Source: Aplysia californica
Taxonomy: Eukaryota
Length of the DNA stretch: 63,827 nucleotides
Reading direction: 5' to 3'
Assembly: GCF_000002075.1 (NCBI RefSeq)
Contig: NW_004797603.1
Span: 294,250-358,076 of the forward strand
Shown here in pieces: positions 21,301 to 59,100 of this stretch (position 1 is the stretch's first letter; the number at the start of each line of letters is the position of its first letter). Made by a program: the position numbers and the translations under genes. The notes below the pieces were generated by a model. That model had not been told where the DNA came from. It saw only the letters and a list, made by a program, of their open reading frames with translations, and searched no databases.

Positions 21301-24300
21301 GCACAAATACACACACACACACTCTCATGCATTACCACAGACAAAATTTACTGGAAGGGGACTGTATTGCACAGATGATTGATCATTATGTGAATGTGGT
21401 GTTTGTTTTCTGAAATGCAATACTTTATTTTAAGTCCAGTCTGTAGCTGAGGTCATTTCCAAATGCATTGTTATGTTGGAGCATATTTTTAAAACTTTGA
21501 TTTTGACGTTCTCGTTTCTTAGATAGCATAGCAATGACCCTTTTGGTTTTTGTCCTGATTCCCAGAGATACTGATCCACCCTTTCATGATAATGAAGACA
21601 AGCAAATCGAAAAAAGTATCGCAGCAGGTGAGTCATAAGGCTTGGGTGATATTTTTGTTGTTGTCTCTTTTGCGCTTCTGTAAGTTATAATGGATGTGGG
21701 GGGGGGGGGCTATGTGTGCGATTGCTGGTGTATGTACAGGCCATCTCTTTCTTTCGTTTGCTAAGTTACCAAGTCAAAGCTGAGGCTGGGCCCAATGCAG
21801 AGAGTAATAATAATAATGTAGATCATTTCTATAGTGAACATATCTCTTGGCGCTTTTCATAAAAATGCATGTACGAACAATATTCACACACATACACACT
21901 CACACTCAATTTTGTCACTTTCATAAGTATATGTATTTGCTTTTTTATTCTTGCTAATGAGCGCATGCGCTGCTACATCTACTGCTTTCCTGTTAGTTTT
22001 GTTTTTATCCTTTTCTGTTAGTAGGCCTCAGAGAATTTATTACTGATATTACTGTAAGTTGCGAAGCCCCATCTCAGCTCTGTATATCTGAGGGAGTTGA
22101 TTGATTGCTCATAAATACATAAATCATACTTCTGTTCCTGCTTTTGTCTATGTTAATTATATCTAGTCATGATTTTTTTCAGAGCAGTTTCTCATTTATG
22201 GTCTTTTTCTTGTTGTTGTCATTCCTTTCTGTAATGCAAACAGGTCATTGATCAATGCTCTTGTGTGAATTCTACAACAACCTTACTCTCAAAAGCATTT
22301 CCCACGCAGTACATGGCCCTCATTGTGTCAGTGTGCCGCCGTGACGTTAGCTAGGTAGTTAGTGGGTGCTCTGGGGGGGGGGGGTTGTTTGCTCCTGAGT
22401 CCTTACAAACATCTATATTCCTTTTCTCTCCCCTTCTTCTCTTTGAAATGTTCTCTCTTGCAACAGTTCTAATCTTCAGCGCTTATATGACCCAATTATG
22501 TTGGAAGTGCCGTACAATTCTTACCCATCCTAAAAAAGAAAAAAAACCAACTGTAGACACAAGAATAAATATGAGTTGTTTTGTGATTGGTGGCTTTCAC
22601 CAGATGTCGGAGATGTCTCTGGACAGCGGCAGAGGCACCATCTCGTCCAACACCACAGGCAGTAGTGGGGCAGGGCGAGGCATGAGGCCCATGCCTGCCT
22701 ACCCCCTGCGATACGCGGCCCAGCACGCCCCACAAATCGCGGAGACGGAGGAGTCTCGGCACAGCCACGACTCGGGCTCCGAGAGCCAAGCTGGGAACAC
22801 CTGGTACAGTCACAGCTCGGCCAGCAGTGCAGCCGAACGTCACCCCCCTAGCCCACCAGTCAGGGAGAGGGACAGGTGTGTTGGAGCAAAGTTAGTACTA
22901 CTTGGCCGAGGCACCAATTTCAAGGATAAAACCGGCGATCTGGATTGTCCGGGTTTTGCCAGGCTTCAGACTGTTTTTCGCAAAGTTTTTATTATATTTC
23001 AATGTCTTTGTGCATTCCATATTGCACTTGATGCAAAGTTAGCCTTGATTCAAGATGTTTTAGACCTTATGATTTGTAAATTTACAGTTCCATGAACCCG
23101 TTTCCACAGGGTCCAAAAAGTTCAGGATTTTTTTCATAGTTGAAATTAGTGTCCATGTTGCACATGCTTTCTGATAAGGCCAAACCCAAAGCTATTGTTG
23201 CTGCATATTCTGTCTTGCCTTAATGCTCTTTAAAATTATCTTGTTGTTTGATATGCCATAATTATATTGTGGTATGTTGGGACATTTTGTTTATCTTTTT
23301 ATCCACTTGTTATGTTGTAATTTCTTGTCAAGTTACCAGTTGGTGACCTAATTTTTAGGGTGATACATTTCAATTTGATTATTTACTTTCCAAATCAAAT
23401 ATTACTGTTTTTAAGAAATAGAAGTAGAATTTAATTATCTATGGTGTGATTTATAGAAAACTTTGAAAGCGCTGTAGTTCTGAAAAAATTATATAGAAAG
23501 TTGTAATACAGTCAAGATTTGTTCTGTTTCATTTCTCCCTCAGTGAAACGGAGGAGGAGCTTCGTAGGACTCACATAGCCATGAAAGACAGAGAGAGGGC
23601 AACTGCTGCCCGACGGCTAGACCCCAGACCTGAAGGACATAGACGAGAGCCACCCGATGGGGGCTCGGACACACATAAAAAACTAGACTCGGTGGGTCAT
23701 TTATTTAGGAAATTTAGAAAAACTGTTTATGGGCACTAAGCAAAGAGGTTGTATTTAGTAAAAGATTTTGTGGCAGTGATTTCCCCCAGGTAAATGAATG
23801 GGGGCTGCGTGTGCCCACTCTGGGACGCTGAACCTCAAGGGCAAGACATGCGCAGTTCAACAGACAAGTGAGTACTCTTCGAGACTCACGTAGAGGCGTC
23901 TCGACTGACTAAGGAAGAAATCTTCAAATTGCACTGAAATATGGGGTCTGGGCGGTGTTTTATATACTAGAGCTTGTGGGGAGCTGGGTGCAGGCTGAAA
24001 TTATTCATGTAAGTGGGGACTCGCCAGCCATGCCTTTGAGGGTGGAAGGCCCCCATGTCTTACATGTGTTACGTCACTGCCGCAAGCTCTAGTATTATAT
24101 ATATATATCCTCTTTGGTACTAAGCTATTTATTTCTCCCTGTAGTCATTGGCATGGTGCTGTAAAGTTCCATTCTTTTACTCAGCACAAGTGTTTTGGCA
24201 GCATCTTGCAAGACTTCACTTGTTGTAAGGTTGTGTGTCCTTTTCCCATTCCTGTTGTGTATGTAAATGATGTTAAATAAATACCATAAGAGTGCATATC

Positions 24301-27300
24301 CCCTCTTGACAGCAAGTGCTGTGCAATTTACACTATTTTAACCCTCTAGCGTGTAACCCGGGAGAAACCGGGACTAAAAATAGAACCGCTACGCGTTTAA
24401 CCCGGGAGAAACCGGGCGAGATCTGACCCCACGCTGCACGGCCGACCCAGGAGAAACCGGGACGACACACCCCCGTGCATTCAATTTAACTTCTAACCAC
24501 AAAGAATGACTTCCCGTGTCTTTAAATAGTCATGATGTCATCTAGGATATTATGGGATACCTCCGGTCCAAATAAACCGCTAAACAGCTGGGGTTGAACG
24601 GTTTGCGCGTCTTTCAAAACACTCGCTGTTTCGTGACTCTGACTATCAGCTGCTCCGACCGACGTTCTCTACCTATCTACTGCTTTTTGAAAACACCACA
24701 CGATGGAGGAAGACAGAAGAAGTGACACAGAGCTTGATGCTGAGTCTGACATTGATGTTATAGACACGGAGGATGCTGTATTTGATGAGTAGGTAAGTGA
24801 AAAGTGAGTTTTTTGTTGTTGTGTGCTGGGAGAGGTGGACTGGAGATAGGCACACACAGAGGTCAACTAACAGCTCGCTATGGAGCATGATGCTTCATCT
24901 ATTCCTAGAAATGCTACACTTGAATTTCATTTAGATCTAGGTCTAGATCTAGTTCTCATGTTGAGAATGTACTGTTTCTAATAGTTCATAGATTATATTA
25001 TTTATATCTAGATTACCTGGGTCTAGAATTTTTTTCAAGACCTAAATCTAGCAGCCTTCCATGGTCAACTTTCTTGCTCTTTGTTCTTTCACTAGAATTC
25101 TAAGCCTACTGTTTACTTTGTGCCAAGTGCTCTACCTTCAGAATGACAATTACAATTCCATTGTACATTGGTTATATTTATAGATCTATACCTTTAGTTT
25201 TTTCGTTGCGAACATTATACTTGTACTTGGATCTAGATCTAGATTCTAGATCTAGATATCTAGTACTACACTTTGAACTAAATCTAGATCTAATCTAGTC
25301 TTTTCCGTGGCGAACATTCTTTGTTTTTTCACTTGCTTTTATTCGTGCGACTGCTCTACTTTCAGACTGACTAAATTATTACAATTCTATTGTACATGGT
25401 GTATCTTTTGTTTTGTATGAGAACTTACACCTGGATCTAGATCTAGTACTACACACTTTGAACTAGATCTAGATCTAGATTTAGTTAGTCAATCATGTTC
25501 ATGGTCAACCTTCTTTGAACATTCTTTCACTTTTGCTGTTTTCTTTGTGCCAACTGCTATACTTTCACTCTGACAATTACAAAATTATTTTACTTGTGTC
25601 TTATCTTCTGTTTACTCTTTTATTTTTCTGCAGCCTGAGGCTGGTGATNNNNNNNNNNNNNNNNNNNNNNNNNNNNNNNNNNNNNNNNNNNNNNNNNNNN
25701 NNNNNNNNNNNNNNNNNNNNNNNNNNNNNNNNNNNNNNNNNNNNNNNNNNNNNNNNNNNNNNNNNNNNNNNNNNNNNNNNNNNNNNNNNNNNNNNNNNNN
25801 NNNNNNNNNNNNNNNNNNNNNNNNNNNNNNNNNNNNNNNNNNNNNNNNNNNNNNNNNNNNNNNNNNNNNNNNNNNNNNNNNNNNNNNNNNGCCAGCAGTT
25901 GGACAGCAACTACAAAAGCGGAGATGAGAGCCTTCCTGGGCATCCAGATTATGTTTGGCGTTAGGCAGCTGCCTTGGCTCTGGTGTTACTGGAGCCAGGA
26001 CCGTCGCTTCAACAATCCTTGGGTTTCCTCCATCATGCCGATCAAGCGCTTCAAGGATCTCAGCAGGTATTTTCACTGCAGGGACAACCAGCACCAGCCG
26101 CAGCGTAGAGAGGAGGGTTTCGATCCCCTCTTCAAAGTGAGAAATGTGATTAACACTACAAAGGAAACATTCACAGCCTGTTTTCAGGCTGGCCGGGAGT
26201 TGAGTGTGGACGAGTGCATGGTAGGGTTCAAGGGTAGGTTGTCCTTCAAGCAGTACATGCCTGCCAAGCCTACTAAATGGGGGGTTAAAATTTGGACTGT
26301 GCGACTCTAAAACTGGATACTNNNNNNNNNNNNNNNNNNNNNNNNNNNNNNNNNNNNNNNNNNNNNNNNNNNNNNNNNNNNNNNNNNNNNNNNNNNNNNN
26401 NNNNNNNNNNNNNNNNNNNNNTGGGTTTTTTAATTCTTTGGACATCGCTGTGCATTTGTGTGCAAACAATACATATATGTGTGGCACCATCATGACAAAC
26501 AGGAAAGGGCTCCCTCCACTGATGAAGACAAAACTAAAAACTAGGGGAGATGTGAGGCAACTTCAAAAGGGCAATCTTGTTGCCACGTTACATCATGACA
26601 AGAGAACAATTTGTGTATTATCGTCAAATCAGATTGCTGGTGTTGCAGCAGATGGTCGGCCCCACTCACTTATCGACTACAACAAGTACATGGGTGGGGT
26701 CGACAAGTTCGACCAACAACTCTCGTACTACCCCGTTGGGAGACCTGGCAAAAAATGGTGGAGGTACATCGTTTGGCACCTCATCAACGCCTCCATCTAT
26801 AATGCGTATGTGTGTTGGAGCCACACTCCTCGTGACTATGTCGCAGCAAAGGGGTACGATCACTTGAGCTTCCGTGTAGATGTTGCCGAGGCTCTGGTGA
26901 ATGGTTTTAGCTCGAGGAAACTCCCCGGACGGCCTGCAACTATCCAGGGGACTGTGGCCCCGGAGAGTTTCCAACGGCATCACTTCACTCGTATTGCTGG
27001 GCGGCCTAAACAGTGTGTTTTGTGTAGTTTAGAAGCGAGGAAAACTCCAAAAGGCCGTCCAGTAGAAACGAGCTACAAATGCAAATTTTGTGAAGTTGCC
27101 CTCTGTAAAGTCATATGTTTTGGAAGGTACCATGAACTTGGCCTTGCCGTCCACAGGGCTTCTACGAGAACACAGAGAGTGACATTTTTTATCTTACCTG
27201 TAATGTATTTTTATACAGTTTACTTTGATTTTTTTTTTTCAATGTGTGTAGTATTAGTAGTATGTGAATTGGTGTTGTGTGCAAAAAGTTTATAGTGTTG

Positions 27301-30300
27301 TGAAATTGTTATATATGTGGACTTCGCAAGAACTGTACTGTAAGTTGGTTTTTACATTATTAAACTTTTCCTTTATTTCAATCCTTAGTTTTTCTTTCTC
27401 TGACTTTATACTTTATTGTAATTGTTGTTCTTTGATTGGGTATGCCATAAGGCCAGCTGGTATCATGTAATATGAACTAGTCTATTATTACTATTGCTCG
27501 GTGAAGATGACACTGCCGTGGGTATATCTGGCTCTTTATTTGGTATGGGTTGGGATTTTTCAAAGCCATTCAATGACTTAGCACCCAGGTGGTGATGAAC
27601 TATAAATTCTGTGGTCCTGCCTCTTAAAAACTGGTTTAGAGGTACAAATGCTTGTCATATATATCCACATTGTGACATGACAACATATTTGCACTTATAG
27701 GTGTGAATCAATGTGCTATAAATCTAATGCACACAAAAATAACACTTTTTAAATGACAGAATGTCATAGAGCATTCATTTCTCTGTTGTCATGAGAAATT
27801 TGAAAGTTGTAGATTGTATAGTGCATTTTAAATACATTTTTTCCTGAACCACCCTAGACAAAGCTGCCAGAAGCCAAAATAATGTAAACACACAAGGCAA
27901 GGTCAGCTGGGCAGGAAGTGGAACAGTGCAGTAGACATGGCTTATCAGTTATCTGCCCACTATAGGGTTAATACCCCATCTGACCCTAGACCACTCAGAA
28001 ACATTCTCGGTATCCTGGTGCAAGCAGCTGATGTATAAAGGATTCTTCTTCCAAATTTTTCTGCAAGCTGCAATGCAATTGTTGGGCTATGTTTTCTGGC
28101 TCCCATGAAGAAAAAGTGTTCTGTGTAGGAGAAAAAAAATTGTGGAAATATTCAGAGGGAAAGAGAAAGAAGAGCTTGTTGAATGTATATTTCTTTCCTT
28201 TTCCTCTGCTTGGTTGCACTTTATCATCATTATTATTATTCTCTGCTTAACTCAAAGCTCGCTTAAATGACTTAATGCAATTGTGAGCTCCGAAAAACTT
28301 TTACCAAATTGAAAGTAGCTCAAAACGGAATGTGGTAACTGGAATGTGCATTTTTATGCATTTCAGGGGAATAGGGATGGCATGGGTGTGACTAAAACAA
28401 AACGCAGCCCGGATGGTGAGAGGTACAAAGACCGGCAGATAGGGCAAGCGTTTGACCCCAGCAAGTACGAGGACAAGGTCGGCGGAACCTTCCAGAACTC
28501 GCCCAGCTCCAGCTCGTGGTCGGTCTCGGGCTCGATGCACAGCGCCCCTGCTGGCAGCCTCTACGAGCAGCACATTCAGCTTTTGGCGTCAGCCGCGCCG
28601 GGCAACGTGGTGAGCAGCACAGAGAGAAGCTGCGGGGGCCAGCCCCCACCCACCCTGCTCCCCGAGGCCCCCCGCCGGCCGCGACCCCCGGCCCACAACC
28701 CCGGTTCGGTCATGGTGGACCAGAGCGAGGTAGACTTCAGCCTGAACACCACCAAGAAAGTGCTGGATTTTGACTCGGACTCGAGAGTGAACAGCCTGTA
28801 CGGCTCACAGGCTCCTCAGGGGGGAGGGGGAGGTGGAGGCGGGGAACAGATGTACTTTGACCCGGCTGATCCGGACAGCAGACAGACCCAGGAGCTGCTC
28901 TACAAGGTTCACAACTACCTGGGCCAGCAGTGCAGGGAAGGGAAGAAGACGACTGACAGTGTCCCGGTGCAAGTAAGCAAATTTTAATCATTCTTGCCTG
29001 TATTTTTCTCAAAAGAAATGCGTATTATAACATCAGAGAGTAGAGCTGGGTCGCGAGAACGGAGCTGAATGGCCACTCTTCACTGCGGATCGCGATTCAC
29101 TTCAGCGAAACAGTATCGCCTTCTAATTCACTCCCCTGTCGCTGTCACCCCAGCGGCTTGTTTGTAACCTACTGCTGGGTTGTGAGTCGAGTCACGAGCG
29201 CAAAAACGGAACGGAACACTTAGTATGGCTCCCCTTATTTTACAAAAGATGGTATAGTCCAACCCCCCCCTATTAAAACAAAATGAACGGGTTCCAACCT
29301 ATAGACAGATAAAATTTTATGGAGCCATTGTTTTAGCGAATCAAGGTGGGGGGGGGTTATGGAGTCACTAATTGAGGTCAGTAGAGCAGCTCAACGAAGG
29401 GTGGGAGGCGGAGAGGATGGCGGGGAAACAAAAGTGGGACTCGCGAAGTGACGTTGATATGACACTGTTCTGTTCACGCATACAACGAGCCCGAGGCTTA
29501 GTGTTCCACGAGTGCTTGCAAACTCGCGATTCTTTGAAGCCGACTGAATCACGAAACCGCCACTCTCAGATTTGACGAGAGAGAAAGTTTAAGAGAAGTC
29601 TAAAGACACATTTGTTCAACTTTTTCCTCCACCATAAAATTTGTATGTTGTAATGTGTGTGGGTCTGGGGTTGTGTGTACGTATGTGTTGTTGTTGCTGC
29701 TGGTAAATAGTCTCATTATGTATATCTTTTGTCCTTTGATTTGTCAGGTAAGTTGAGAGATAACTGCATTGTACAGCACTCACACCCTCCAACTTAGAAC
29801 ACGACTGCCACAGTGATAAGTGACAGGGGTTGATGAATTCTCAGGAAGTACGGCATAGGTCGCTATTCATTCCTTTCTTTCTGCTATGCTGAAATTTTTC
29901 TTATGAAGTTTATAGTTGGCCAATTCTTGTTCCCTTTCATCTCAGGGTTTTCGTTAAAGAATTTACTGGTATATCTAATCTGTATTGGTTTCTTTTTTCG
30001 TTCACGAATGTTGTGTTTGTCTGAAACTTACTTTTGCAATTGTTGTTTCCCTTCAGTTCTCTAGTCCTGATGCTGCCCGAACACGGGTGCAGTTGTCGGA
30101 GAAAGAAGTTCAGCGCTGCGTTCTGGCCAGACCCGACCCGCGACAGGACAGCCCACGTGGCAGCGGGGCCAACAGGTACCAGGGTCAGGGGAAGACCGAC
30201 GGCGCGGACTGTGACAGTTTGACCAGTCCACTCAACACAGAGCGGCTCAGGCCTATCAGACAGCGGACCAAGAACGTAGTGGTAGGTAGTTCTAGTTTGT

Positions 30301-30348
30301 CGACTGTCACACGTCTCCTTTAAGAGTTAGAATTTATTCTTTACGTTT

Positions 30349-30408
<60 letters not shown>

Positions 30409-33400
30409 CTGGCACTGTGACATCATCAGTGGTCAGCGATGTGGACAGCATGCAGGAACTCAATACTCGCTCGGGAGGTCCTTGAATCGTGCTTATCGTG
30501 GGTTGTTGAAATGTCCCAGCAGATGTGTTTTGGCACGATAATTCTTTACATTGAAAGGGGGCCTCCAGTCATGGGGAAAAAGGCATCTCTCTCTGCTCAA
30601 GGCGAGAGCTTTGCAGTTTTAAAAACAGTTGTCTTCGCCTGAGACCAGCTTTTACAGCATACTGGAATTTTTAAAAAATAATTTGCATGCATAAGAACGA
30701 TGAAATCTGCTGTATCAATAATAATATAATATAACTGACAATGTACACAATCTGATAGATAGAATCGCCAGATGTATCAATGATATAAGAAAATGGATGT
30801 TCAAGAACAAATTAAAATTAAATGAGGATAAGACCGAAATATTATTTCTTCGTAGCAGCGCATGCAATGAAATCGACGATATCAGAATAAACATCAATGG
30901 CCACGAAATATCAGCCCAAACTAAAATAAAAAATTTAGGTGTGGTGCTAGATCAAGATATGTCAATGAAATACCATGTATCCAATCTTTGTAAAAATCTA
31001 TATCTCCAGCTGAAGAAAATAGGGAGCATTAGAAAATATCTATCTGTTGGTGTCACCAAAACTTTAATAACATCACTTATATTGTCAAGGATTGATTATT
31101 GCAATTCCTTACTGGCTGGTGTACCTGATGAACAGTTACAACAACTACAAAGAGTACAAAATATTGCTGCCAAAATAATTACTAAAAAACTAAAGCATGA
31201 TCATGTGACTCCTATTTTAAAAGCATTACACCTGCTCCCAGTGAAAGAGCGCATCATATATAAAATCTGTTAAACTTGCTACAAGTGCTTAAATGATTTA
31301 TCACCGGACTATCTAAAACAGCTTTTAACACCCTATGTGCCTCCTAGAACGCTCAGATCATCAAGTGACAAAACAACCCATGTTAAGCCTAAAATAAATT
31401 ACAAATCATATGGCCAACGCTCTTTTTCATATTTTGCCCCACTTGTTTGGAATAGGCTTCCAAAAACTATCAGAGAAGCAGAAAATTTAGAAATTTTTAA
31501 GAAGAAACTAAAAGCATTTCTATTTTCATCATATTTCGATTAGACAGAATCCATCCAAGCTGTAGATCGTTGTGAGTTTGTATGTGCGTATGTGCATATG
31601 TACGTATGTATGTGTGTGTGGTGCGTGCGTGAGTGAATGTGTTTGCACGAGTATGTAACACTATGTACCTTTAAAATTGATTTGTAAATCCATAATATGT
31701 ATCATGTTAAGCGCATAGAGCATTGCATAAGTGGATATGCGCTATATAAATGCAATCCATTATTATTATAATGACATCTACTCCTTTCAAGTGCCAGGCA
31801 ATGAAAAAAAATTATTTTACTAAACATGTCGATTTTTAAAAGCAATTATTTCTTATTATTCATTTCTCTAAAATTACAGGTGCACATCCTAGAGGACGGG
31901 TCTGTGTGTGTGGAGTTCCTCAAGCGCAAGGGACAGGAAGACAAAGTGATGGAGGTTTTGTCCATCTCGCACGATGGCTCGCAGGTGAGAATATATACTT
32001 TTAGGTATCGATGTGGAGTTGAGAATTATCGGGTGCTCTTGGCTGTTGATCGTGTGTATGATAAAGATCTGGATGGTCTTCTGTTGTTGCAATATTATGA
32101 TTCATTTAAGTGTATGGAGTCCTGAAGCTGTGCTGCTATCATTTTTCCATGCTCTGACTGGTAGAATTTTATCAGTAAATAAACACTAATCTTCATGAAA
32201 AGAAAAATAGGGTCTAGATTCAATGCAAACTTTGATTTAGAAAAAACAAAAAAGAATGATACAATTGAAATTTTCTTAGACAGCCACACCTTGTCTAGGA
32301 GAATTGTAGCCATCTCAGACAGGTGAATGTTTTACACAGTGTCATTATAATGTAAAAATAACGCAGGGGAGTAAATGGGAAGTGGCCGTTTGTGCAGGTG
32401 ATGGTCTTATACAGGTATCCATTAGAGCAGGTGTGTGATTGGCGGGTGCTCTGGTGTGGTTTGCTTCTTCTTTCCTGTCAAATATCTATCGTCCTTATCG
32501 CCCCTTCTTTTTTATGTTTGTTACACTCTTGTAACACCTCTGATCTTCTGGTGCTCATAAGAATCTTATGCAGTTGCGAGCGCCGTAAAACCTCAACTAA
32601 AACTAAGACTAACATTAGAGCAGGTTTGATTGTAAAATTGTTGTACCGATGTGTTTTTTGTTCAGGTGCGAGTGTTTCAGCCGGAGGATGGGAAAGGGGT
32701 CGTCGTGGTGGAGCAGCCACCTCCCCAGCCAGACAGGTGTAAGATGTTTGACTTCTCCTGCCTGCCTCAGAAATATGTCAAGAAATACTTGTATGCGGCC
32801 AGGTAAGTGTTTAGTGTACCTGTATTCAGCTAGGTAAGATTTTATTGTACTTGTGTGCAGCTAGGTAAGTTTTTTTACTTCGGGGGGGGGGGGTGCGATT
32901 TGTGCCTAGATTTCTTGAAATGGTTAATGGTACTTAGAAATGTATACTGTTTTCTCTGATGTGTTTTGTTCCTTGTTTCCTAAAAAAAAAGTATCATTCT
33001 TATCTCTCTTCTTTTTTTTTTTTTGTATGTTATTCTATAGTATCACCTTTAACCTTTGGATTTTATATGACCTATTTGCGTTGCAAATGTTGTAACTCTT
33101 AACAAAACTGTTTAGTTATAAACCAACCATTTTCTTGGAATATGCAAGTGTAAATATTTTACACATTTTTAGTGAGTAATGTTTGGTTTCATAAATTTGA
33201 AATGTCTCATGCAGAAAATTGTAAGAACAATAGTCTAGCATGATCATCATGAAATTTTTGGAACATGGAAATCTATTCATTTGTATAAATTTCACTCCAC
33301 TTGCGTTTAAGATCCATAGAATGTATATTAATTGTTTAAAATTCAGGACTTGAAAATCTATTCACTGTGTTTTGCTATGTAAGTGCTGCACTGTAATTAA

Positions 33401-36400
33401 ATTTATGAGACTGAAAAGAGTTCTAATTCTTTGCTAAAGTAATTTGTAACAACAGTGAAAGAGGTCAGCTGATTCCAAGTGCTTAACTGCTCCACCACAG
33501 ACCCCAATGATGTGGAAGATATGGGCTCTGAAAATTGAAATAATGAACAAAACGCCCACCAAAACCATCTAAGCATTGTTGGCTTTTTCTTTCCTTCACA
33601 TAAATAATGAGACTTACTTGATGTGTTGTGATTGTATTCTGGACTAATCGGTATCGACTGCCTAGTGTAAGACTCTGTTATGTGCCATTTTCGCCTCTGC
33701 AGGTTGGGGGCCCATAGTTTTACTGGGGGGGCAAAGAATACACCTGCCGTGATACTGACTTACTGCGCGTGGTAAGAAGCAATTAAAGGTGCATAGGTCT
33801 GGTCTCCGGAAAAGTGCCAGTTTGCAGAGGGCCAACTACCCAACCCAGTAAAAAACAGTCAGTTACAGAAACACTGACAAACACAGCTTTTTATTTTTAG
33901 ATCTTGACTTGGGTGATGGAGGAGCTTCTGCATCAGCAGGAAATTAATGTACAGAAAAGTGGGAAGACATGGAATAACGTCAAGAGTCTAATCCAGGATA
34001 GAGAAAGGTGGCCAGGAAAGGTTTGTTCGAGGCCTTTACCCTGGTGCAGGGTGAGAAAGACATTTGTGATAAGGATGATGATATACCATTTTGAAAAGTG
34101 ACTTACGATGGGGTCTCATACTGGGCTGTCTGTACAAGTTAATCCCTCTGTCCGTGACCACAAGAAGAGTTGGTGTGACTTGCTATCATCAGACTGACCG
34201 CTGTCCCCTCTCCAGGTTTGTGTCCCTGATTCAGTCCAAGACGCCCAAAGTGACCATGTACACACAGCGGGCCAAGTGCATGCTGATGGAGAACCAGCCG
34301 TGCCCAGACTTCATGGCCGAGTTTTACGATGGTAGCTTTCTCATATTTTACTCACTTTGTCTCTTCTTTTACAATCTCATCTTTTACTCACTTTGTCTCA
34401 TCTTTTACTCACTTTGTCTCATCTTTTACTCACTTTGTCTCATCTTTTACTCACTTTGTCTCATCTTTTACTCACTTTGTCTCATCTTTTACTCACTTTG
34501 TCTCATCTTTTACTCACTTTGTCTCATCTTTTGCTCTCTTTGTCTCATCTTTTGCTCAATGTGTCTCATCTTTTGCTCACTTTGTCTCATCTTTTACTCA
34601 CTTTGTCTCATCTTTTACTCACTTCGTCTCGTCATTTACTCAGTTCCTACTTCATGTTCAACACTCTTTGTCTCATCTTTTACTCACTTTCTTCCTGCTT
34701 TATGTTTGCTCACTTTGTCTCATTTTAAAAATGAATTTAATTATTGGCTCATCACCTTTTATGCTTGTTTTTTTAAAAATTCTCTGTGGATTTCGCTGAA
34801 ACCCATTGATCAAAGGCACAAGAAATGTGAATTTTTGGTTTTGTAACACAGTGACTGATTTATGTAATGTATGTTGGCTGAAATTGTTTTCCCAGCTAAT
34901 TATATACATGAACCTGTTCCCAGGAGCCAAGTTTTCCTCTGGTGCTAAAGGAGTGAAGATCATAGAAAAAGATGGCACGAGTCTGACACTGGAGTCTGCG
35001 GAGGTGAACCAGAGGCTGAGTGGAGAGACAAGAGATATTTTACAGTATGTTCAACAGGTGGGCTGGCTTTGATTTATTTTTATCATGACCTTTAACACAG
35101 CTTCATGTAAAAATACGAATGAAAGAATTCATGCTATTATCATGGGGACCTTTTTTTTCCAATGCTATTTGTACAAAACTAGTGTTATTTGAATCTGCCA
35201 TTTTCCCATCCAGGTTGAAGTACAGTCTGTTAATTGAGAGTACTGGAAAAAGTCAAAACGCCAAAAGCAGACAGTTCCAGATGGTCATAACAATGATTGC
35301 TTTTACAGACATTAATGTGTGTTTTGATGAGTGGGGGATTTTTGTTCACTCTTATTATTTTCTCGGAGATGAAATTATCTTTCTGATAGTGAGACTCTAG
35401 AAAATGTTTTGAATCTTTTAATACTTTTCCATAACTCTTTAAACCCCATCAGATGCTGGGAACGTCCGGCGGTAATAACCCTGTTCCCCATCGGACACTA
35501 GGACTAGAAGCGTCCACTACTAGTGACAACTGTTTCATTTGATATTATATATAGTACTAGTTTTTGCTTGTTTTTTGGAACTATTCCCGAACCAAGATTT
35601 TTAGTAATGACTAAGCATTTGTTTCCGCCATTTAGAAGTTGGAGGTAAACTTCTGGGGTTATAATGAGACATAGTGCACCAGGTTTAGGTGACTGTAGAA
35701 AAAACTCCGGGAAATGGTGAAAAAAAACTCAGGGTTTAAAGAATTAAGTTTGTTCCTCACCTTTGTGTTTCCAAGCTAATTTTACACACACAAAAATCAT
35801 CTTCCAGTGTCGCCAGCAGTGTGTTCAGCTAGAACAAGTCATTTCCTCAGTGCAGTCCGCAAGCTCAAGAGCTGACCAGCTGTTTCCCGTTATTGTTGGA
35901 AGGTAGGTCGATCGTCTATATTAATCCTAAATTGTTGTGTGATCGGGACAGTTAAAAAAAATTGCTGCTGTTTGAACTAGACAAGAACATTTTTTACCTT
36001 TTGTGGGTGGGGGGGTTTGGTCCTCAGTTGAGATAGATACGCAGTTGAAAACTTGTCGCTTGTCTCTGTATATTTTGTCTGAAATGATGTGTGTAAAATC
36101 TTCTGTTTGAAAAATCCCTGTACTGTGGCTATTGTTTTATTCTGTGTTGATGTTATGTTCTGCTTCTTCGACAGTTGTATTTCTTTTGTCCTTATCTGTC
36201 CCTTTCAAAATAGTTTAGTTTAGTTATTTTACTTACTTGTGGTGAACTACAGCTCAACAAGAAAAAACAACCCACATCAGTATTTCTTTTTCAGTGTCAT
36301 TATTGTTATTGTCAGGTGGGTGTTCTGGTTTAAACAGGTGATAATGGGTGCTCTGGGTTGATTAACCCCCTCCTTTTTTTTTCCTACGTTTCTTCTATCA

Positions 36401-39400
36401 TCCTTATGTTAACCTGATGCGAAACGTGGACATTGTCTTGCCACTGGATACAATTCAGTCAGTGGGTGGTTGGTGGGTGCTCTGGTGTGGTTTGCTCCTT
36501 CTTTCCTATCAAACACCTGTCATCCTTATCTCCCCTCCTTCTTTTTTGTGTTTGTAACTCTCATGTAACACCTCTAATCTTCGGCACACTTATGACCTAA
36601 TTGTGTTGCATGTGCCGTAGAACACTTACTAAAACTTAAAAAATAGTTCTAATGTTTTACTGGTTTCATTAAAACTCTTTGTTTACCGTGTCTCTCCTCC
36701 CCCCCCCCCCCCCCCCCCCCCCCCTGTTGAAGTACCGTAAAGCTCTTATTAAAACTTTTAAAAAACGTACATGTCAGTAGCTCCCCAACACTTACTGGTT
36801 TTACAACTGTTGATATTGATTTCTTGTTGCAGTTGGTTGGGCAGATTGGTGGGTGGTTGGAGAGCACCACTAGTAGATCTTACTTTTTTTCTTTCCCTCT
36901 GTTGTTTCTATCTATCTGTCCTGCTTCTTCACTGCTTTATATGACCATTATTGTGTCGATTTTGCTTTCTGTTATTCAAAGTGGACGGTTGGCAGGTGCT
37001 CTGGTGTGGTTTGCTCCCTTCTTTCCTATCAAACATCTATTTTCCTTATCTCTCCTTTTTTTGTGTGTGTGTGTGTGTTTTTTACTCTCTCGTAACACTT
37101 CTAATCTCCGGCACTTTCATGACCTAATTGTGTTGCAAGTGCTGTAAAACTCTTACTAAAACTAAACTAAAGCTTCTATCGCCCTTTTCTCCCCTCCTTT
37201 TATGCGTTGTAACACTTTTCTAATCTCCAGCATTCATATGACCTTATTGTTTTGCAAGTAAAGCATCTGTACTCAAACTCAGCAGTTTGAGGGTTTTATG
37301 ACCCTTGGTATCGACTCAGCCTTAACACTCTAACTTACCGTGTTTCTTTCCCACCCCCGTGGTACACACAGACGGCCCGACCGGAGCTGCCTGGAAAGAA
37401 CGGGCTCCAGTTCAGGCAGCAGCAGCAGAGGTCACGGGGTCAACGACACTCAGCTCTCCACCATCCGACCCAAAGTACAGGTGAGGAGACAGAGAGACAT
37501 TAGACAATACACTGACAGTCAGCAACATTTGGTGGGAAACAGAGGGCTGTATCACTTACTTGCATCAAAGAATTTTTATGGATGTGTACAAAGCTTCAGC
37601 CAGATGTATTAGTTCTAAAGAACTTTTTGAATTGATATCATTTAAAAGTTCAGGCTTTTTTTTTTCATAGCCAGTTGGCACATCTGTATCCACTTTGTGC
37701 CTCTCAGAGATACACATATATGTCCGTGATCATATTCACTTTTTTTTCCTCCCAGATACCCACATCTAACAGTGATCTTTTCTGCTTTTTCCTCCCTGGC
37801 GTCACTTTTTTACCTCTCGTATATCCACATATAATACATGTCAGTGATCATATCCACTTTTTCCCTCCCAGATATCCACATCTGTCGATAATTATGTCCA
37901 CTTTTTCCCTCCCAGATATCCATGTTAGTAATTTAATTATGTCCACTTTTTCCCTCCCAGATATTCACATTTGTCAGTTATCATATCCTCTTTTTCCCTC
38001 CCAGATATTCGCATTTGTCAGTTATCATATCCTCTTTTTTCCTCTCAGATATCCACATTTGTCAGTTATCATATCCTCTTTTTTCCTCTCAGATATTCAC
38101 ATTTGTCAGTTATCATATCCTCTTTTTTCCTCTCAGATATCCACATTTGTCAGTTATCATATCCTCTTTTTTCCTCTCAGATATCCACATTTGTCAGTTA
38201 TCATATCCTCTTTTTTCCTCTCAGATATTCACATTTGTCAGTTATCATATCCTCTTTTTTCCTCTCAGATATCCACATTTGTCAGTTATCATATCCTCTT
38301 TTTTCCTCTCAGATATCCACATTTGTCAGTTATCATATCCTCTTTTTTCCTCTCAGATATCCACATTTGTCAGTAATTGTGTCCTTTTTTTTCCCTCCCA
38401 GATATCCACATCCGTCAGAAATTTAAATTATGTCCACTTTTTCCCTCTCAGATGTCCACGTTTGACGGGACGCTGACGAGCACCGCGGCCGACCAGACCC
38501 TGGACAACACACTACTGACCACTGCCTCCACCTCCTCCTCCTCCTCCTCCTCCTCCTCCGCCTCATCCTCCTCGGGGAAAAAGAACGCATCTCCCTCCTC
38601 GCGCCACGCCTCCTCCACCCAGCCCAGGTCCTCCTACGTGGTGCAGCAGATGTTTGTCCCGGACATCGGCTGGGCCTCGCAGACGGCCGCAGGGGAGGTT
38701 TGGGTTCGGTTCCAGGATGGGACGCAGCTGGGTGTCAAGTCTACTGCCACGACGGTCACTTACGTCAACGCCTCTGGCAAAGTGCACAAGTAGGTGTCTC
38801 ACGTTGTTAGTTTTTAGACTTTTAAAAATGTTTTTGAGGTGGGGGTCATATATTGAACTGAGAATTTGTGATTGGGGGGGGTTTACAAAAAATAGAGAAA
38901 GCCTGTCGCAATCTTGAAAGTGATATACACTGCACGCATATACGCACCTGTAACCTGGTTCATGACAATCAAATTTGGGATGCATAGTCACTGAGATAAG
39001 GAATATTATTATTTTGGACAAATTGGAATGCTTGTCACTGTGTATGATGAATAACATTTGAATAGCGCAAATTCCCGCTCAGCAGCAAGCTGTGTGTGCT
39101 TTACAATGCTACTCCAGCAGACCAGATAACATTCTGAAACAATCTCAAGTTCCCGGGAAGCTTGTAGAGCTAACAGCTATTTTACAGGCGCGAAAACACA
39201 AATGCTGACGAGATGACCTTTCACTGTTTCTAAAGGTTTTTGTCTTATTTTGTTATTTCCTGACCCTTTTATTTCTCACCCCCAGATTTCACCAGTCGGA
39301 TTATCTGCCCGACGTGGTCAAGAGCAAACTGAGCAAACTGCCGCTGGTGCTGGAGACGCTACGGACCAAATCTCCGCACACCCACACTGCCGGCTCTTCC

Positions 39401-39415
39401 ACGTCACCGAGATGA
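15304..39415 (+). CDS. PLK4: Serine/threonine-protein kinase PLK4 (SAK), centriole duplication kinase; 19 coding exons, about 1081 aa
   Basis: Exons: 15304-15330, 18232-18327, 18826-18921, 19547-19774, 20255-20343, 20882-21114, 21566-21627, 22604-22875, 23544-23691, 28367-28972, 30057-30281, 31880-31984, 32666-32802, 34216-34331, 34924-35057, 35808-35902, 37372-37480, 38452-38789, 39286-39415 (TGA). Sum 3246 nt, all GT-AG, phases consistent. Kinase motifs [42 protein letters not shown]; phosphodegron DSGRGT; cryptic polo box ([17 protein letters not shown]..., SKTPKVT, FPVIVGRRP); PB3 ([21 protein letters not shown]). Confidence 0.96.
16475..16913. mobile_element. MITE with about 85-bp TIRs in PLK4 intron 1
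   Basis: gaagctacagcgagcacctagcacacctctgtgattgg... mirrored by ...ccaatcacagaggtgtgctaggtgctcactgtagcttc; TSD not evident. Confidence 0.75.
17080..17777. mobile_element. hAT-type non-autonomous element
   Basis: Termini TAAAGTTGGG / CCCAACCCTA; 8-bp TSD CTTTAAAG (17072-17079, 17778-17785); GC-rich subterminal CGGACG/CGAAC motifs. Confidence 0.8.
19318..19437. repeat. Exact 60-bp tandem duplication
   Basis: ttgttctaaaaaatgactactctgccaacttcaatgtataatagtatgaatactgatga occurs twice, back to back. Confidence 0.9.
22910..23154. mobile_element. Small MITE
   Basis: ggcaccaatttcaa ... ttgaaattagtgtcc inverted termini. Confidence 0.45.
24342..27967 (+). mobile_element. piggyBac DNA transposon (PGBD4-like) in PLK4 intron 9, same orientation as the host
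   Basis: TTAA target duplication at 24338-24341 and 27968-27971; imperfect TIRs CCCTCTAGCGTG / CCCACTATAGGG; three subterminal ACCC(G/A)GGAGAAACCGGG repeats (24356-24462); internal transposase. Confidence 0.9.
24703..27295 (+). pseudogene. piggyBac transposase, apparently two-exon and disrupted
   Basis: Acidic mini-exon 24703-24792 ([29 protein letters not shown], then GTAAGT); acceptor ttttctgcag|25634. Core motifs [58 protein letters not shown], and C-terminal Cys-rich domain [22 protein letters not shown]. Frameshift near 26296 (expected LCDSKTGY is out of frame). Two N gaps inside. Confidence 0.85.
30730..31770 (+). mobile_element. 5'-truncated L2/CR1-group LINE (RT C-terminus plus 3' UTR) in PLK4 intron 11
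   Basis: [88 protein letters not shown]; one internal stop; 3' hairpin GCGCATA..TATGCGC and (TAT)n tail. Confidence 0.88.
32433..32612 (+). mobile_element. Representative of an abundant ~175-bp SINE-like family (about 25 copies in the window)
   Basis: Consensus GGGTGGTTGGCGGGTGCTCTGGTGTGGTTTGCTCCTTCTTTCCTATCAAACATCTATCGTCCTTATC..GTTACTCTCTTGTAACACCTCTAATCTT..TGACCTT..GTTGC.AG.GC.GTAAAAC..ACTAAAACTAAA. This copy has a 13-bp TSD CATTAGAGCAGGT (32420-32432 / 32613-32625) and sits inside a family-B MITE. Confidence 0.85.
32786..32880 (+). repeat. 3 x 31-bp tandem repeat containing the PLK4 exon 13 donor
   Basis: TACYTGT.T.C.GCYAGGTAAG.. units start at 32786, 32817 and 32848. Confidence 0.85.
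33690..34085 (+). mobile_element. Second internally deleted RTE-like element
   Basis: Same layout: ccaacccagtaaaaaa..gttacagaaac 5' part, [20 protein letters not shown]-terminal part, ggcctttaccc 3' end, GAT-rich tail. Confidence 0.5.
34340..34722 (+). repeat. 21-bp minisatellite (CTCATCTTTTACTCACTTTGT)n directly after the exon 14 donor
   Basis: About 17 copies, degenerate at the ends; produces the periodic spurious ORFs. Confidence 0.95.
35435..35743. mobile_element. Small TIR element, possibly a piggyBac-type MITE
   Basis: (taa)ctctttaaaccc ... gggtttaaagaa(ttaa) inverted termini. Confidence 0.45.
37700..38466 (+). repeat. 44-bp minisatellite derived from the PLK4 exon 18 acceptor
   Basis: Unit CAGATATCCACATTTGTCAGTTATCATATCCTCTTTTTTCCTCT, about 16 copies; the last unit is the true junction ttccctctcag|ATGTCCACGTTTGAC. 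Confidence 0.95.
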
Positions 39416-56173: not shown

Positions 56174-59100
56174 CATCGGATGACTTAACCACTTAATTCT
56201 TTGAGGTTCTTTGTGTTCCATAACTTGTTTTATCCCTGTTGAATTTCGGACAGTTTCGCTCATTATGCAGTCTTTTCTAGTTGCGTTATTTAATTTAATT
56301 TAATTTTCTGAAGCATTCTATATCAAAGGCAAAGATCCCCCCTCCCCCTCTAAAAACAACTAGCCAAAGCGCTTCCCTGACTCTGTGTGATTTTCCAGGT
56401 TTGTGGAGTCTCAGAACGAGCCCAGCAGCGACCCCGTGGTCCTGTGGCTCAATGGCGGGCCCGGATGTAGCTCTCTCTTTGGCCTCCTTCAGGAAAACGG
56501 CCCGTTTACCATACAGCCGGACGGCAAGACGCTGGTGGCCAACCCGTCTAGCTGGAACACTCTCACCAACGTTATCTACCTAGAGGCCCCGGCCGGAGTC
56601 GGCTATTCCTACTCCAAAGACAAAGATTATAGGACGGACGACGACGACACTTCTCTAAATAACTTAGTGGCCATGGTCGATTTCTTTAGGAAGTTTCCAG
56701 AATACAAGAAGAACGACTTTTATATCACTGGCGAGAGTTATGGAGGAATCTACGTACCGCTCCTGGCGTTGAGAGTGGTTGAGAACAGAACGATCAACCT
56801 TAAGGGCTTTGCTATCGGTAACGGGTTATCTGATGTGAAGCTGAATGATAATTCGGTTAATTTCCTCACCTACTACCACGGCATCGTGGGGTCGGAACTG
56901 TGGGATAAAACACTAAAGGATTGCTGCAAAGGTCTTCCCAATGATAAATGAGACTTTGACAAGCAAAGGAAAGTTGACAAGGACTGCCAAAAGGATCTAT
57001 CAGAGATCCAAAAAGCCATGTGGGAATCAGGCCTGGACCCGTATAACATCTACGCCAAACGCGCTGGAGGTGTGAACACCACAAGCAAGCTGAATATTTC
57101 GTCAAGACGGGACTGGTGGCCACTTTTAGGTGACAAAGACAACAGTTACCAAGGAACCACACATTCCTTCTCAGATGAATCCGTGCTTGTTACATATATG
57201 AATAGGCCAGACGTGAAGAAAGCTCTTCATGTCCCTCCCGGTCTTCCGAACTGGGTTCTTTGCAGCAACTTGCCATATACACGAATCTATGACACGATGA
57301 AGGACATATATCAGATGTTGCACGGAATGATGCACATAATGGTGTACAACGGAGACCTTGATATGGTGTGCAACTATCTCGGAGACGAATGGTTTGTGGA
57401 ATCCTTCGGTCTTGCAAAAGCTGGAGCAAGGAAGCCTTGGTTGTATCCTGACTCAGACAGCACAAAGCAAGTCGGAGGTTTTAGAAAGGACTACAGCGGT
57501 AACGTCAGGCTGGTCACTGTGACCAACCAAGGAAAGCTTTGCAAATGTTCTCAGACTTTATCAGAAATAATTAATAACTCATTAACAGGGTCTTTGATTA
57601 AGCTGTTGGTCAATGAAAATAGTTGCTTGGAAATCCTTTTGCTATCCGCTTCAGTTTCTTCAAAGATGTAATGATTGATATATTAAGTAAATATTTACAT
57701 TTTGGTATTTAAAAAAAAACGTGTTTAACTTTACTTGGGTTCGCTTATTGGGTGGTTGTCTGTTACTATGGTGTGGTTTGTTCTATTTTTCATTCCTATC
57801 AAACATCTATCGTCTTTACCACGTCTACTTTTTTGTATGACACTCTCAACTAACGTCACCGATCTTGGGCACTTAAGCTACCCATATGTGTTGCAAACGC
57901 CGTAAAATTATTACCGAAAACAAAAAATAAAAACTCTGGTTAGTCACTATCTGTATCTATATATAATATTATATTTGTAAAAGTCGTCACTTTGGTCACT
58001 TAAAACTTTTGAACAACTTAACTTTCGAATTTGAACAAAAACAAATGTGGCTCAGAACCATTTAAAGGGTGCACAGTTACATTAAAGAATCTGAAGTCAT
58101 TCTAGTTTAATTTTCAGTTTTTCATTAATTTCGTTTAGATCTAATCTTGGGAAAGTCCGTCTTCTAAGACGCCATTGCAAACAAGTGAAGCTTCCGTTCA
58201 CAAGTAATGCGCACTGACCACATCGACTTGGCGATCGGATCTTTGGAGTCCGTTCATCGAACGGGTACCCAGCTAGTATCTGTATAATATTCTTCTTCTT
58301 CCAGAACTGCAAATTGATTCCTGCTACGTAGTGTCCCGTCAGCGTGATCAGGTCAAACGTACACAGCTTGATCCACACGTAGAAAGCACACCAGTGGGGT
58401 TTTCTGTGAACTTGATTTCTGTACTGCATAGTATTGGTGTTCTTCTGAATTGTTCTTCCATGTGTACGTTAGACAACATACGAAGCAAATGGTGACTCAA
58501 ATGGCGAATTAAAAATGACGGGTGGTTGGCGGGTGGTCTGGTGTGGTTTGCTCCTCCTTTCATATATAACATCTTTTGTCCATATCTCTCCTCAACCAAA
58601 TAAACACAGCTACCTCAGAATAACAAAGTTTTATCTGGCATTTTTGGCCGTTTCGAGTTATCAAAACCATCAAGTCAGAAATTAATTGTTCTCTCTGCTA
58701 TATTAAAATCGTAAAAGAATGTTCGGAGTCGTTATCAAAATTATTCAAAGAATTGCATTCGAAAAAAGCTTGAGATATTGTGAAATTAAAAACATTTTGA
58801 CGTCAAATTTCTCAAAACTAGATCTAGGTATCGAGCAGGCAAAACTTTGTGATTCTGAGGTAGCGATAGCAAAGATAGTACATAACAAAATGGTCCACTC
58901 AGCCAAAAAAGCGTCCCCCGGAAGTCCGCTCTTTCCTTCAGATGGCCTGCGGTCTGTTTTGAAGCTCTCTTTCGTTTCTCCAGAAGAAAAATAGGAATAA
59001 CACCTTGTGTGCGCAGATCGACTGCTGTTCATCAGCTGTTACGGTTCGTTCAGTGCGGAGTTTTCGTTTTAAAAAATATTTTAATGACCTCTCGCCTCTC

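Follow-up and report, generated by a model that had tools for sequence, protein, structure and literature searches.

Can a transposon that lies in the intron of a kinase gene lend that gene its transposase? The question is raised by a window of 63,827 nucleotides from Aplysia californica (contig NW_004797603.1; all positions below are those of the window), in which a piggyBac element sits within intron 9 of PLK4. A preliminary description had proposed that a splice acceptor carried by the element could trap the upstream PLK4 exons, as in CSB/ERCC6-PGBD3, and tether the kinase to a transposase DNA-binding region. Part of this proposal stands: the element appears to have its own intron, its acceptor is strong and in frame, and a predicted gene model in Elysia suggests that such capture may occur. 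A DNA-tethered kinase in the manner of CSB-PGBD3 is not supported. We consider it probable that the PLK4 copy is an ordinary intronic insertion in decay that carries a latent trap, and unlikely that a functional PLK4-transposase fusion exists.

The host gene and its insertion

PLK4 exons 1-9 span 15304..23691 on the forward strand (exons 1-5: 15304-15330, 18232-18327, 18826-18921, 19547-19774 and 20255-20343; exons 6-9: 20882-21114, 21566-21627, 22604-22875 and 23544-23691). They match XP_012940437.1 and encode the kinase domain (Pkinase) and the linker with the DSGRGT motif, which is located in exon 8; the RefSeq Aplysia californica PLK4 is 100% identical to exon 8 of the window. Joined, these exons form an open frame of 1251 nt, or 417 codons when counted from an ATG at 15304 (the RefSeq starts give 425), and exon 9 ends at 23691 in phase 0 (TCG, followed by the donor GTGGGT). 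Polo boxes 1 and 2 are encoded downstream, in the region of exons 10 onward (28367..39415, forward strand; boundaries beyond exon 11 are an approximate model only), and the exon 10 acceptor at 28367 is also phase 0. Joined frame and domain scan thus agree with the earlier account of a 417-residue PLK4 part with kinase and DSGRGT motif but without polo boxes.

The insertion is a piggyBac element on the host strand at 24342..27967, as had been described, with both TTAA target-site duplications (24338..24341 and 27968..27971), terminal inverted repeats and orientation confirmed. It comprises 3626 assembled bases, or about 3639 with the gap sizes of the family majority form introduced below. The terminal inverted repeats are short and imperfect (7/8 first bases agree). 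Three subterminal direct repeats of about 24 nt lie at the left end (24349..24461, forward strand); the right end shows no counterpart even when as many as four mismatches are allowed. Transposase exon 2 (25634..27182, forward strand) contains the DDE_Tnp_1_7 domain (PF13843; E 2e-32 and 3e-18) and a weak match to the C-terminal cysteine-rich zf-Tnp_2 (PF13842; 22.4 bits, slightly below the cut-off of 24). Asp codons at 26209 and 26702 are presumably residues of the catalytic DDD motif, the middle Asp position falling inside the second of two assembly gaps. Behind the open reading frame a candidate sense poly(A) signal, ATTAAA, is found at 27359..27364, and there is no AATAAA downstream. TTAA duplication, short terminal repeats, DDE_Tnp_1_7 and the cysteine-rich domain together identify the element as piggyBac-like.

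A multi-copy family with a probable intron in its transposase

In contigs of the run X5 the element reaches a depth of 452-543 where the flanks have a median of 63, which is 7.1-8.6 times (about 7-9x), a ratio that is not a copy number, and distinct element alleles occur in the run X11 and in RNA reads. The element exists as several near-identical dispersed copies of a multi-copy family, as the contig depth already indicates. In X11, contigs run unspliced across the two splice sites of the element and exons are not enriched, so that this run behaves as low-coverage DNA. Contigs of both runs collapse the copies and show the majority form of the family rather than the PLK4 locus. Contigs of the X5 flanks enter the element for 28 and 25 letters without a branch, below the 31-letter bridging rule; a second animal thus appears to carry the insertion on both of its chromosomes, and the insertion is therefore not a rare private one.

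Is the transposase split by an intron of its own, as previously proposed? Probably so. Exon 1 (24703..24792, forward strand) is an acidic stretch of 90 nt, or 30 codons, that can be read directly up to the donor GTAAGT. It would be followed by a predicted phase-0 intron of 841 nt, rich in TCTAGA repeats (24793..25633, forward strand), and by exon 2 from the acceptor at 25634. Phase 0 is the most common intron phase. A later insertion private to the PLK4 copy can be dismissed as the origin of this intron: the majority contigs carry it, and the Elysia gene models P0039 and P0111 break at the matching position. In the family, translation of the transposase would normally begin at its own start in exon 1, which is joined by splicing to exon 2 to give about 550 aa.

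The acceptor at 25634 was rightly called strong. With 17/20 pyrimidines it equals the top value among the 18 acceptors of PLK4 (range 11-17), compared with 13/20 at exon 10. Whether it opens in the frame of PLK4 had been left to gap 1 (25649-25890), and the nominal size of 242 letters would shift it out of frame. In contigs of both contig runs (X5 and X11), however, this gap holds 231 letters, a length (15+231) with which the acceptor keeps the frame of PLK4 exon 9; the length is that of the majority form rather than of the PLK4 locus, and an internal stop could lie among these letters. Gap 2 (26322-26421) holds 126 letters in the majority contigs, which keeps the frame and gives the 43-codon spacing of the closest homologs.

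A young copy in decay

The majority form, as represented by the X5 and X11 contigs, is in frame wherever it is visible. From this form the PLK4 copy departs by three disabling lesions. As reported earlier, exon 1 ends in TAG at 24790; the majority has GAG. Two bases are missing behind 26297, which corresponds to the frameshift suspected near 26296, and the frame of the assembly stops at 26308-26310, shortening the transposase. A second loss of two bases behind 27173, absent from the preliminary description, abolishes the normal stop. As read in the assembly, the copy lacks an intact transposase frame and is not autonomous.

Could these lesions be artefacts? Because contigs collapse the copies, single lesions could be assembly errors or private alleles, and an intact locus would then allow the trapping of a protein of about 940 aa with kinase and near-complete transposase. 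The loss behind 26297 does lie 24 bases from a contig end within a TG run, and the intact form appears in the contigs from X5 and X11, yet what these contigs represent is a majority into which several copies have been collapsed. All three lesions would have to be wrong separately, and differences occur throughout the element, many of them at a distance of over 500 bases from any gap. At least 26 substitutions separate the PLK4 copy from the majority in 3284 sequenced element bases (0.8-0.9%), compared with 5-10 in 5205 bases of flank (0.1-0.2%), an excess with p=5e-5 at worst. Their pattern is also unlike random error: CpG transitions in the window copy account for 7/26 listed sites and the reverse direction for 1/26, where uniform error predicts 0.45 CpG-decay sites (p=2e-7). 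We regard an intact locus as very improbable and, given this CpG signature, take the copy to be aging.

The coding changes fit a copy that is decaying, with 9/14 altering the protein and 5/14 silent against a neutral silent share of 0.21. The resulting pN/pS of 0.49 is below 1 but non-significant (p=0.16), so that these 14 coding changes give no significant signal of purifying selection on the transposase part, and the three disabling lesions speak against such selection. Two changes affect conserved residues: an R has become W and a D has become N at positions where 8/9 covering homologs have R or D, respectively. At less than 1% divergence from intact sister copies, the insertion must be young. 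The most coherent history would begin with a sense-oriented jump into a TTAA of PLK4 intron 9 by one copy from a two-exon piggyBac family that was active until recently; since then this copy would have decayed, probably neutrally, in a methylated gene body through CpG loss, the stop in exon 1 and the two frameshifts.

Is the acceptor used?

Both RefSeq isoforms of PLK4, X1 and X2 (2/2 cluster members), skip the element and continue directly from exon 9 to exon 10. Since the raw RNA runs X21 and X22, two of the three available, carried no PLK4 exon reads (zero depth on exons 7-11), they have no bearing on a fusion or on use of the 23691^25634 junction. Their profile would suit libraries made from 3' ends, PLK4's own 3' end being outside the region compared, or a tissue that lacks PLK4 transcripts. 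Among the loose ends listed for these runs none is a sense poly(A) end, and a weak joint could lie beyond those listed.

At the protein level, no kinase domain was found in the transposase matches scanned (36 of 1091 in one set, 60 of 99 in another), and no transposase domain in the 2 of 653 PLK4 exon-8 matches scanned, nor in 13/14 further PLK4 matches, the 14th being the RefSeq PLK4 itself. PLK4 proteins of Biomphalaria, Candidula and Ostrea are without a transposase domain, a protein-level result that says nothing on the intron. RefSeq models and clustered protein sets may miss minor isoforms; one kinase-transposase model, P0107 of Elysia, sat hidden as a cluster member. A metagenome scan retained 80 loci, which are uninformative on the intron in relatives because identity of the best segment is at most 43% and DNA matches span only 30-46 bases in 5/80. 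Neither the insertion nor a PLK4-transposase fusion is described in the titles and abstract openings searched, a collection that leaves most subscription journals and Repbase outside its scope.

Could the trap leak nevertheless? As the acceptor at 25634 is as pyrimidine-rich as the best in the gene and lies upstream, it may compete with that of exon 10. A measurable minority of transcripts would then splice 23691^25634, end at ATTAAA and slightly reduce full-length PLK4. The predicted product would terminate at 26308 after about 640 aa, with kinase, degron linker and about 220 aa of transposase but no polo boxes. The strong, proximal, in-frame acceptor and the candidate hexamer at 27359 speak for such leakage, and in the accessible text of a survey of host-transposase fusions, DNA transposons commonly provide the acceptor (bioRxiv 10.1101/2020.05.07.082677). 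In the Elysia crispata model P0039, 59 aa of a THOC3-like start continue, at the corresponding point, into exon 2 of an element from this lineage, which suggests that capture by host exons is possible, at least in prediction, P0039 being an automated model. Set against this are the RefSeq annotation, which lacks the isoform, the donor of exon 1 as a rival partner for the acceptor, and the nature of ATTAAA, a variant hexamer 1049 nt behind the premature stop. An unselected leaky trap is therefore conceivable but rather unlikely. Under the reading of an ordinary decaying insertion, the spliceosome would mostly excise the whole 4.7-kb intron, the in-frame acceptor would be an inherited transposon part rather than a local adaptation, and any leak would amount to splicing noise.

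A domesticated fusion under selection, with the kinase tethered to DNA, would demand more. Its overall geometry resembles that of CSB-PGBD3 (PMC2268245), the acceptor is in frame, and the insertion appears to be present in a second animal. Against it, the reading frame is broken, the copy is young with sisters still intact, no significant constraint is detected, and no such protein or model was found in the searches above. The zinc finger and two of the catalytic aspartates, the last ones, would also be missing from the predicted product. The piggyBac domain layout given in the consulted part of PMC7351741 includes a two-part DNA-binding domain; mapped by motif onto the Aplysia transposase, it implies that the frameshift behind 26297 removes the second half of this domain together with the zinc finger. 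We therefore set aside the proposed tethering and judge a domesticated fusion extremely unlikely.

What the locus may teach

As it stands, the PLK4 case shows nothing unusual, since young copies of DNA transposons commonly age within introns. Of more lasting value is the family, in which a mobile piggyBac has an intron in its coding sequence; found in Aplysia, and apparently also in Elysia, it offers a clean natural test of how frequently transposon acceptors are captured before domestication. Should the junction prove abundant, a PLK4 without polo boxes would be of consequence: centriole number is under the control of PLK4 dose, and the protein depends on its cryptic polo box to dimerise, to trigger its own destruction and to be recruited to centrioles, according to the portion of bioRxiv 10.1101/2023.11.06.565834 consulted. 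One bolder scenario, to which we give little credence, is that the trap is truly used in dividing tissue, where a stable isoform with kinase and degron but no polo boxes would tune the dose for centriole duplication within the first 1% of decay; the gastropod piggyBac intron would then be a ready trap in every sense intronic insertion, and the Elysia THOC3-like model an independent case.

Comparison with known systems

Among relatives, the closest matches are PGBD4-like sacoglossan transposases (Elysia marginata GFS16913.1, E. crispata KAK3746884.1 and Plakobranchus GFO04588.1), with about 60-70% identity to the Aplysia transposase in the catalytic core. They share the acidic SDTEL-x-x-ESD start, and the N-terminus of the Elysia model P0107 aligns with element exon 1 along 27 aa at 56% identity; they belong to other species and other loci than the PLK4 copy.

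With the piggyBac-like group that combines terminal inverted and direct repeats, as far as it is covered in the part of PMC5381638 available, the element shares TTAA, short terminal repeats, end repeats, DDE_Tnp_1_7 and the cysteine-rich C-terminus. That part mentions introns only for the domesticated PGBD5, PGM and TPB2, whereas the Aplysia family looks mobile and yet has a coding intron. An Aplysia element, AcaPBLE, is on record there, and the family of the PLK4 copy may already be among the elements listed.

The survey of host-transposase fusions, in the sections accessible, covers tetrapods only, and the word "kinase" is absent from its main text (bioRxiv 10.1101/2020.05.07.082677). Measured by its scheme, the PLK4 locus shows only the first step, insertion, and the raw material for the second, a transposon acceptor, fusion splicing being the second step and purifying selection the third.

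How far, then, does the likeness to CSB/ERCC6-PGBD3 extend? Judged by the excerpt of PMC2268245 consulted, both are TTAA-flanked, sense, intronic piggyBac elements with an in-frame acceptor of their own and a candidate poly(A) signal behind the reading frame. The proposed geometry holds for the sense intron and the phase-0 in-frame acceptor, the latter with the gap size of the majority form, and fails for an acceptor placed before a complete intact reading frame. PGBD3 has its acceptor 7 nt before the whole intact frame; that of the PLK4 copy belongs to an internal intron, skips 30 codons and leads into a frame broken at 26308. The CSB-PGBD3 fusion has been conserved for 43 My and its mRNA equals that of full-length CSB in abundance, whereas the PLK4 copy is less than 1% from its mobile sisters, with no fusion transcript known.

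PLK4 and its inserted element

Joined from the ATG at 15304, PLK4 exons 1–9 form 1251 nt of open frame, or 417 codons. This frame closes in phase 0 at 23691, the phase in which exon 10 also begins at 28367; the boundaries modelled for later exons are approximate. Exon 8 shows 100% identity over 90 aa to the RefSeq Aplysia californica PLK4, whose cluster holds two members, X1 and X2 (1089 aa each), which differ in their first exon and both pass directly from exon 9 to exon 10. Pfam assigns residues 19–272 to the kinase and 684–900 to polo boxes 1 and 2, and therefore a product stopping after exon 9 has no polo boxes, in agreement with the preliminary description.

The alternative first coding exons of X1 and X2 lie at 15280–15330 and 15502–15552. 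An HSP70-family gene (about 900–10000, minus strand; HSP70 match at 3506–4012, further exons suggested) is arranged head to head with PLK4. Within PLK4 intron 11, a 182-aa open frame (30725–31270, plus strand) has no Pfam match and looks like the final part of a LINE reverse transcriptase. Two serine carboxypeptidase (Peptidase_S10) copies at 56391–57668 and 62012–63220 share 90% identity over 2.2 kb and have long uninterrupted frames, the first broken by a stop near 56950.

The sense, TTAA-flanked, intron-containing piggyBac described earlier in PLK4 is confirmed at 24342–27967 (plus strand), with TTAA on each side. Seven of the first eight bases of its inverted repeats agree, and three direct repeats are confined to the left end. 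Both sequenced coding blocks match DDE_Tnp_1_7, the zinc-finger match falls slightly under the Pfam cut-off, and an acidic 30-codon frame (24703–24792) matches the N-termini of slug relatives. Judged by sequence comparison, the intron is native to this piggyBac lineage, because contigs of the majority form (the commonest family sequence in sequencing runs X5 and X11) carry it and two Elysia crispata gene models, P0039 and P0111, break at the matching place. P0111 is full-length with an acidic first part of 26 aa, and the host join of P0039 falls exactly where P0111 leaves that part. The junction 24792^25634 is the element's own predicted splice. Between 24925 and 25604 the intron also contains an old internal duplication (69 nt, 75%) and TCTAGA-rich repeats matching a very abundant genomic repeat (X5 depth about 59,000).

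Family copies and the decay of the PLK4 copy

Two assembly gaps lie inside transposase exon 2, and each is crossed by single contigs in both X5 and X11. The first (25649–25890) measures 231 letters against 242 assembled, and 126 letters replace 26322–26423 at the second, lengths that belong to the family majority form and would presumably apply to the PLK4 copy. Since 15+231 is divisible by three, the acceptor at 25634 joins the transposase in frame at the majority-form length, as had been proposed; the 126 letters also preserve the frame.

X5 is probably DNA, and its mismatches with the window at flank sites identify it as another animal. Its depth is 452–543 over the element and about 63 in the flanks, a ratio (7.1–8.6) that does not equal copy number and that we read as several near-identical copies of a young family. 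Flank contigs at single-copy depth extend inside the element by 28 and 25 letters, short of the 31-letter bridging rule, with no break at TTAA among the joints listed, which suggests that the insertion may occupy both chromosomes of that animal.

In the majority form, GAG stands at 24790 in place of the window's TAG, and two extra bases follow both 26297 and 27173, giving a transposase of about 550 aa by arithmetic. Compared with this form, the 3284 sequenced bases of the window copy carry 26 listed substitutions, with five further X5 sites beyond those, and 5205 flank bases carry 5–10. Among the 26, CpG transitions number seven in the window direction, against 0.45 expected from uniform error (p=2e-7), and one in reverse; therefore the differences, taken as a set rather than lesion by lesion, are mostly real mutations of a methylated copy. 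An intact copy damaged by mis-assembly would match the open majority form, and this CpG excess makes it quite improbable. Two window changes alter conserved residues (each conserved in 8/9 covering homologs). A test for constraint on the transposase, which has little power, gave nothing significant (5/14 coding changes silent, neutral share 0.21, p=0.16, pN/pS 0.49); a fusion maintained by selection would accord with the in-frame acceptor, and we consider it very improbable. The likely state of the PLK4 copy is a neutral, decaying insertion removed with the intron by splicing.

RNA and protein evidence

PLK4 exons 7–11 have zero depth in both raw poly(A) runs, so reads neither support nor oppose the fusion junction 23691^25634. 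An unselected exon trap leaking through this acceptor would suit the shared phase 0, both RefSeq isoforms bypass the element, and we judge it unlikely. Reads within the element are mostly minus-strand, near 27105–27700, and bear non-window alleles, such as C at 27308 in 17/17 and 19/19 reads; these alleles point to other copies as their source. Minus-strand reads with non-window alleles show a loose end in poly(T) ahead of 27389, and AATAAA lies on the minus strand at 27412–27417; at another copy, the 3' part of the element apparently acts as an antisense poly(A) site.

Among transposase relatives, no kinase domain was found in the 36 (of 1091) and 60 (of 99) matches listed, nor a transposase domain among the PLK4 exon-8 matches examined; these searches cover cluster representatives, behind which chimeric models such as P0107 can hide as members, and the Aplysia PLK4 cluster was examined in full, both members. 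P0107 (Elysia crispata RRG08_055389) runs from transposase, to about residue 496, into the C-terminal portion of a PRP4 kinase, an element-to-host chimera that is perhaps a prediction artefact. In P0039 (RRG08_027619, an automated model), 59 aa of a THOC3-like WD40 start lead into exon 2 of the piggyBac lineage seen in PLK4, host into element, the geometry proposed for PLK4.

The predicted fusion protein

With the frameshift, a fusion would comprise 417+5+77+139 = 638 aa, or 646 if counted from the RefSeq starts, and stop at 26308–26310. By motif, we take the Asp at 26209 to be the first catalytic one, inside the fusion, and place the later catalytic Asp residues and the zinc finger (from 27014) outside it. 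Of the two common poly(A) hexamers, the sole sense occurrence behind the ORF is ATTAAA at 27359, a candidate signal. As described for the T. ni piggyBac structure, the DNA-binding domain consists of two segments flanking the catalytic core, and activity needs the cysteine-rich domain (PMC7351741). Given the stop at 26308–26310, tethering to transposon DNA would be unlikely even with the splice in use. The earlier interpretation thus stands in its geometry and in-frame acceptor; its PLK4 kinase tethered through the transposase DNA-binding region is not supported, the frameshifted product ending before the second DNA-binding segment and the zinc finger.

Comparison with known systems

Some piggyBac families with introns are present in repeat databases. 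The available text of one account mentions piggyBac introns for domesticated piggyBacs only (PMC5381638), intron-bearing Tc1-like elements have already been described in bivalves (bioRxiv 10.1101/656579), and another study found no homolog of PGBD5 in Aplysia (PMC3902484). In CSB-PGBD3 the acceptor lies 7 nt before an intact ORF, the fusion mRNA is as abundant as its parent's, and the arrangement has been conserved for 43 My (PMC2268245). Host–transposase fusions are generally described as having transposon-borne acceptors and purifying selection (bioRxiv 10.1101/2020.05.07.082677). What the PLK4 locus shares with these systems is the geometry; as assembled, its ORF is broken, its two RefSeq isoforms contain no fusion, and its transposase shows no significant constraint.
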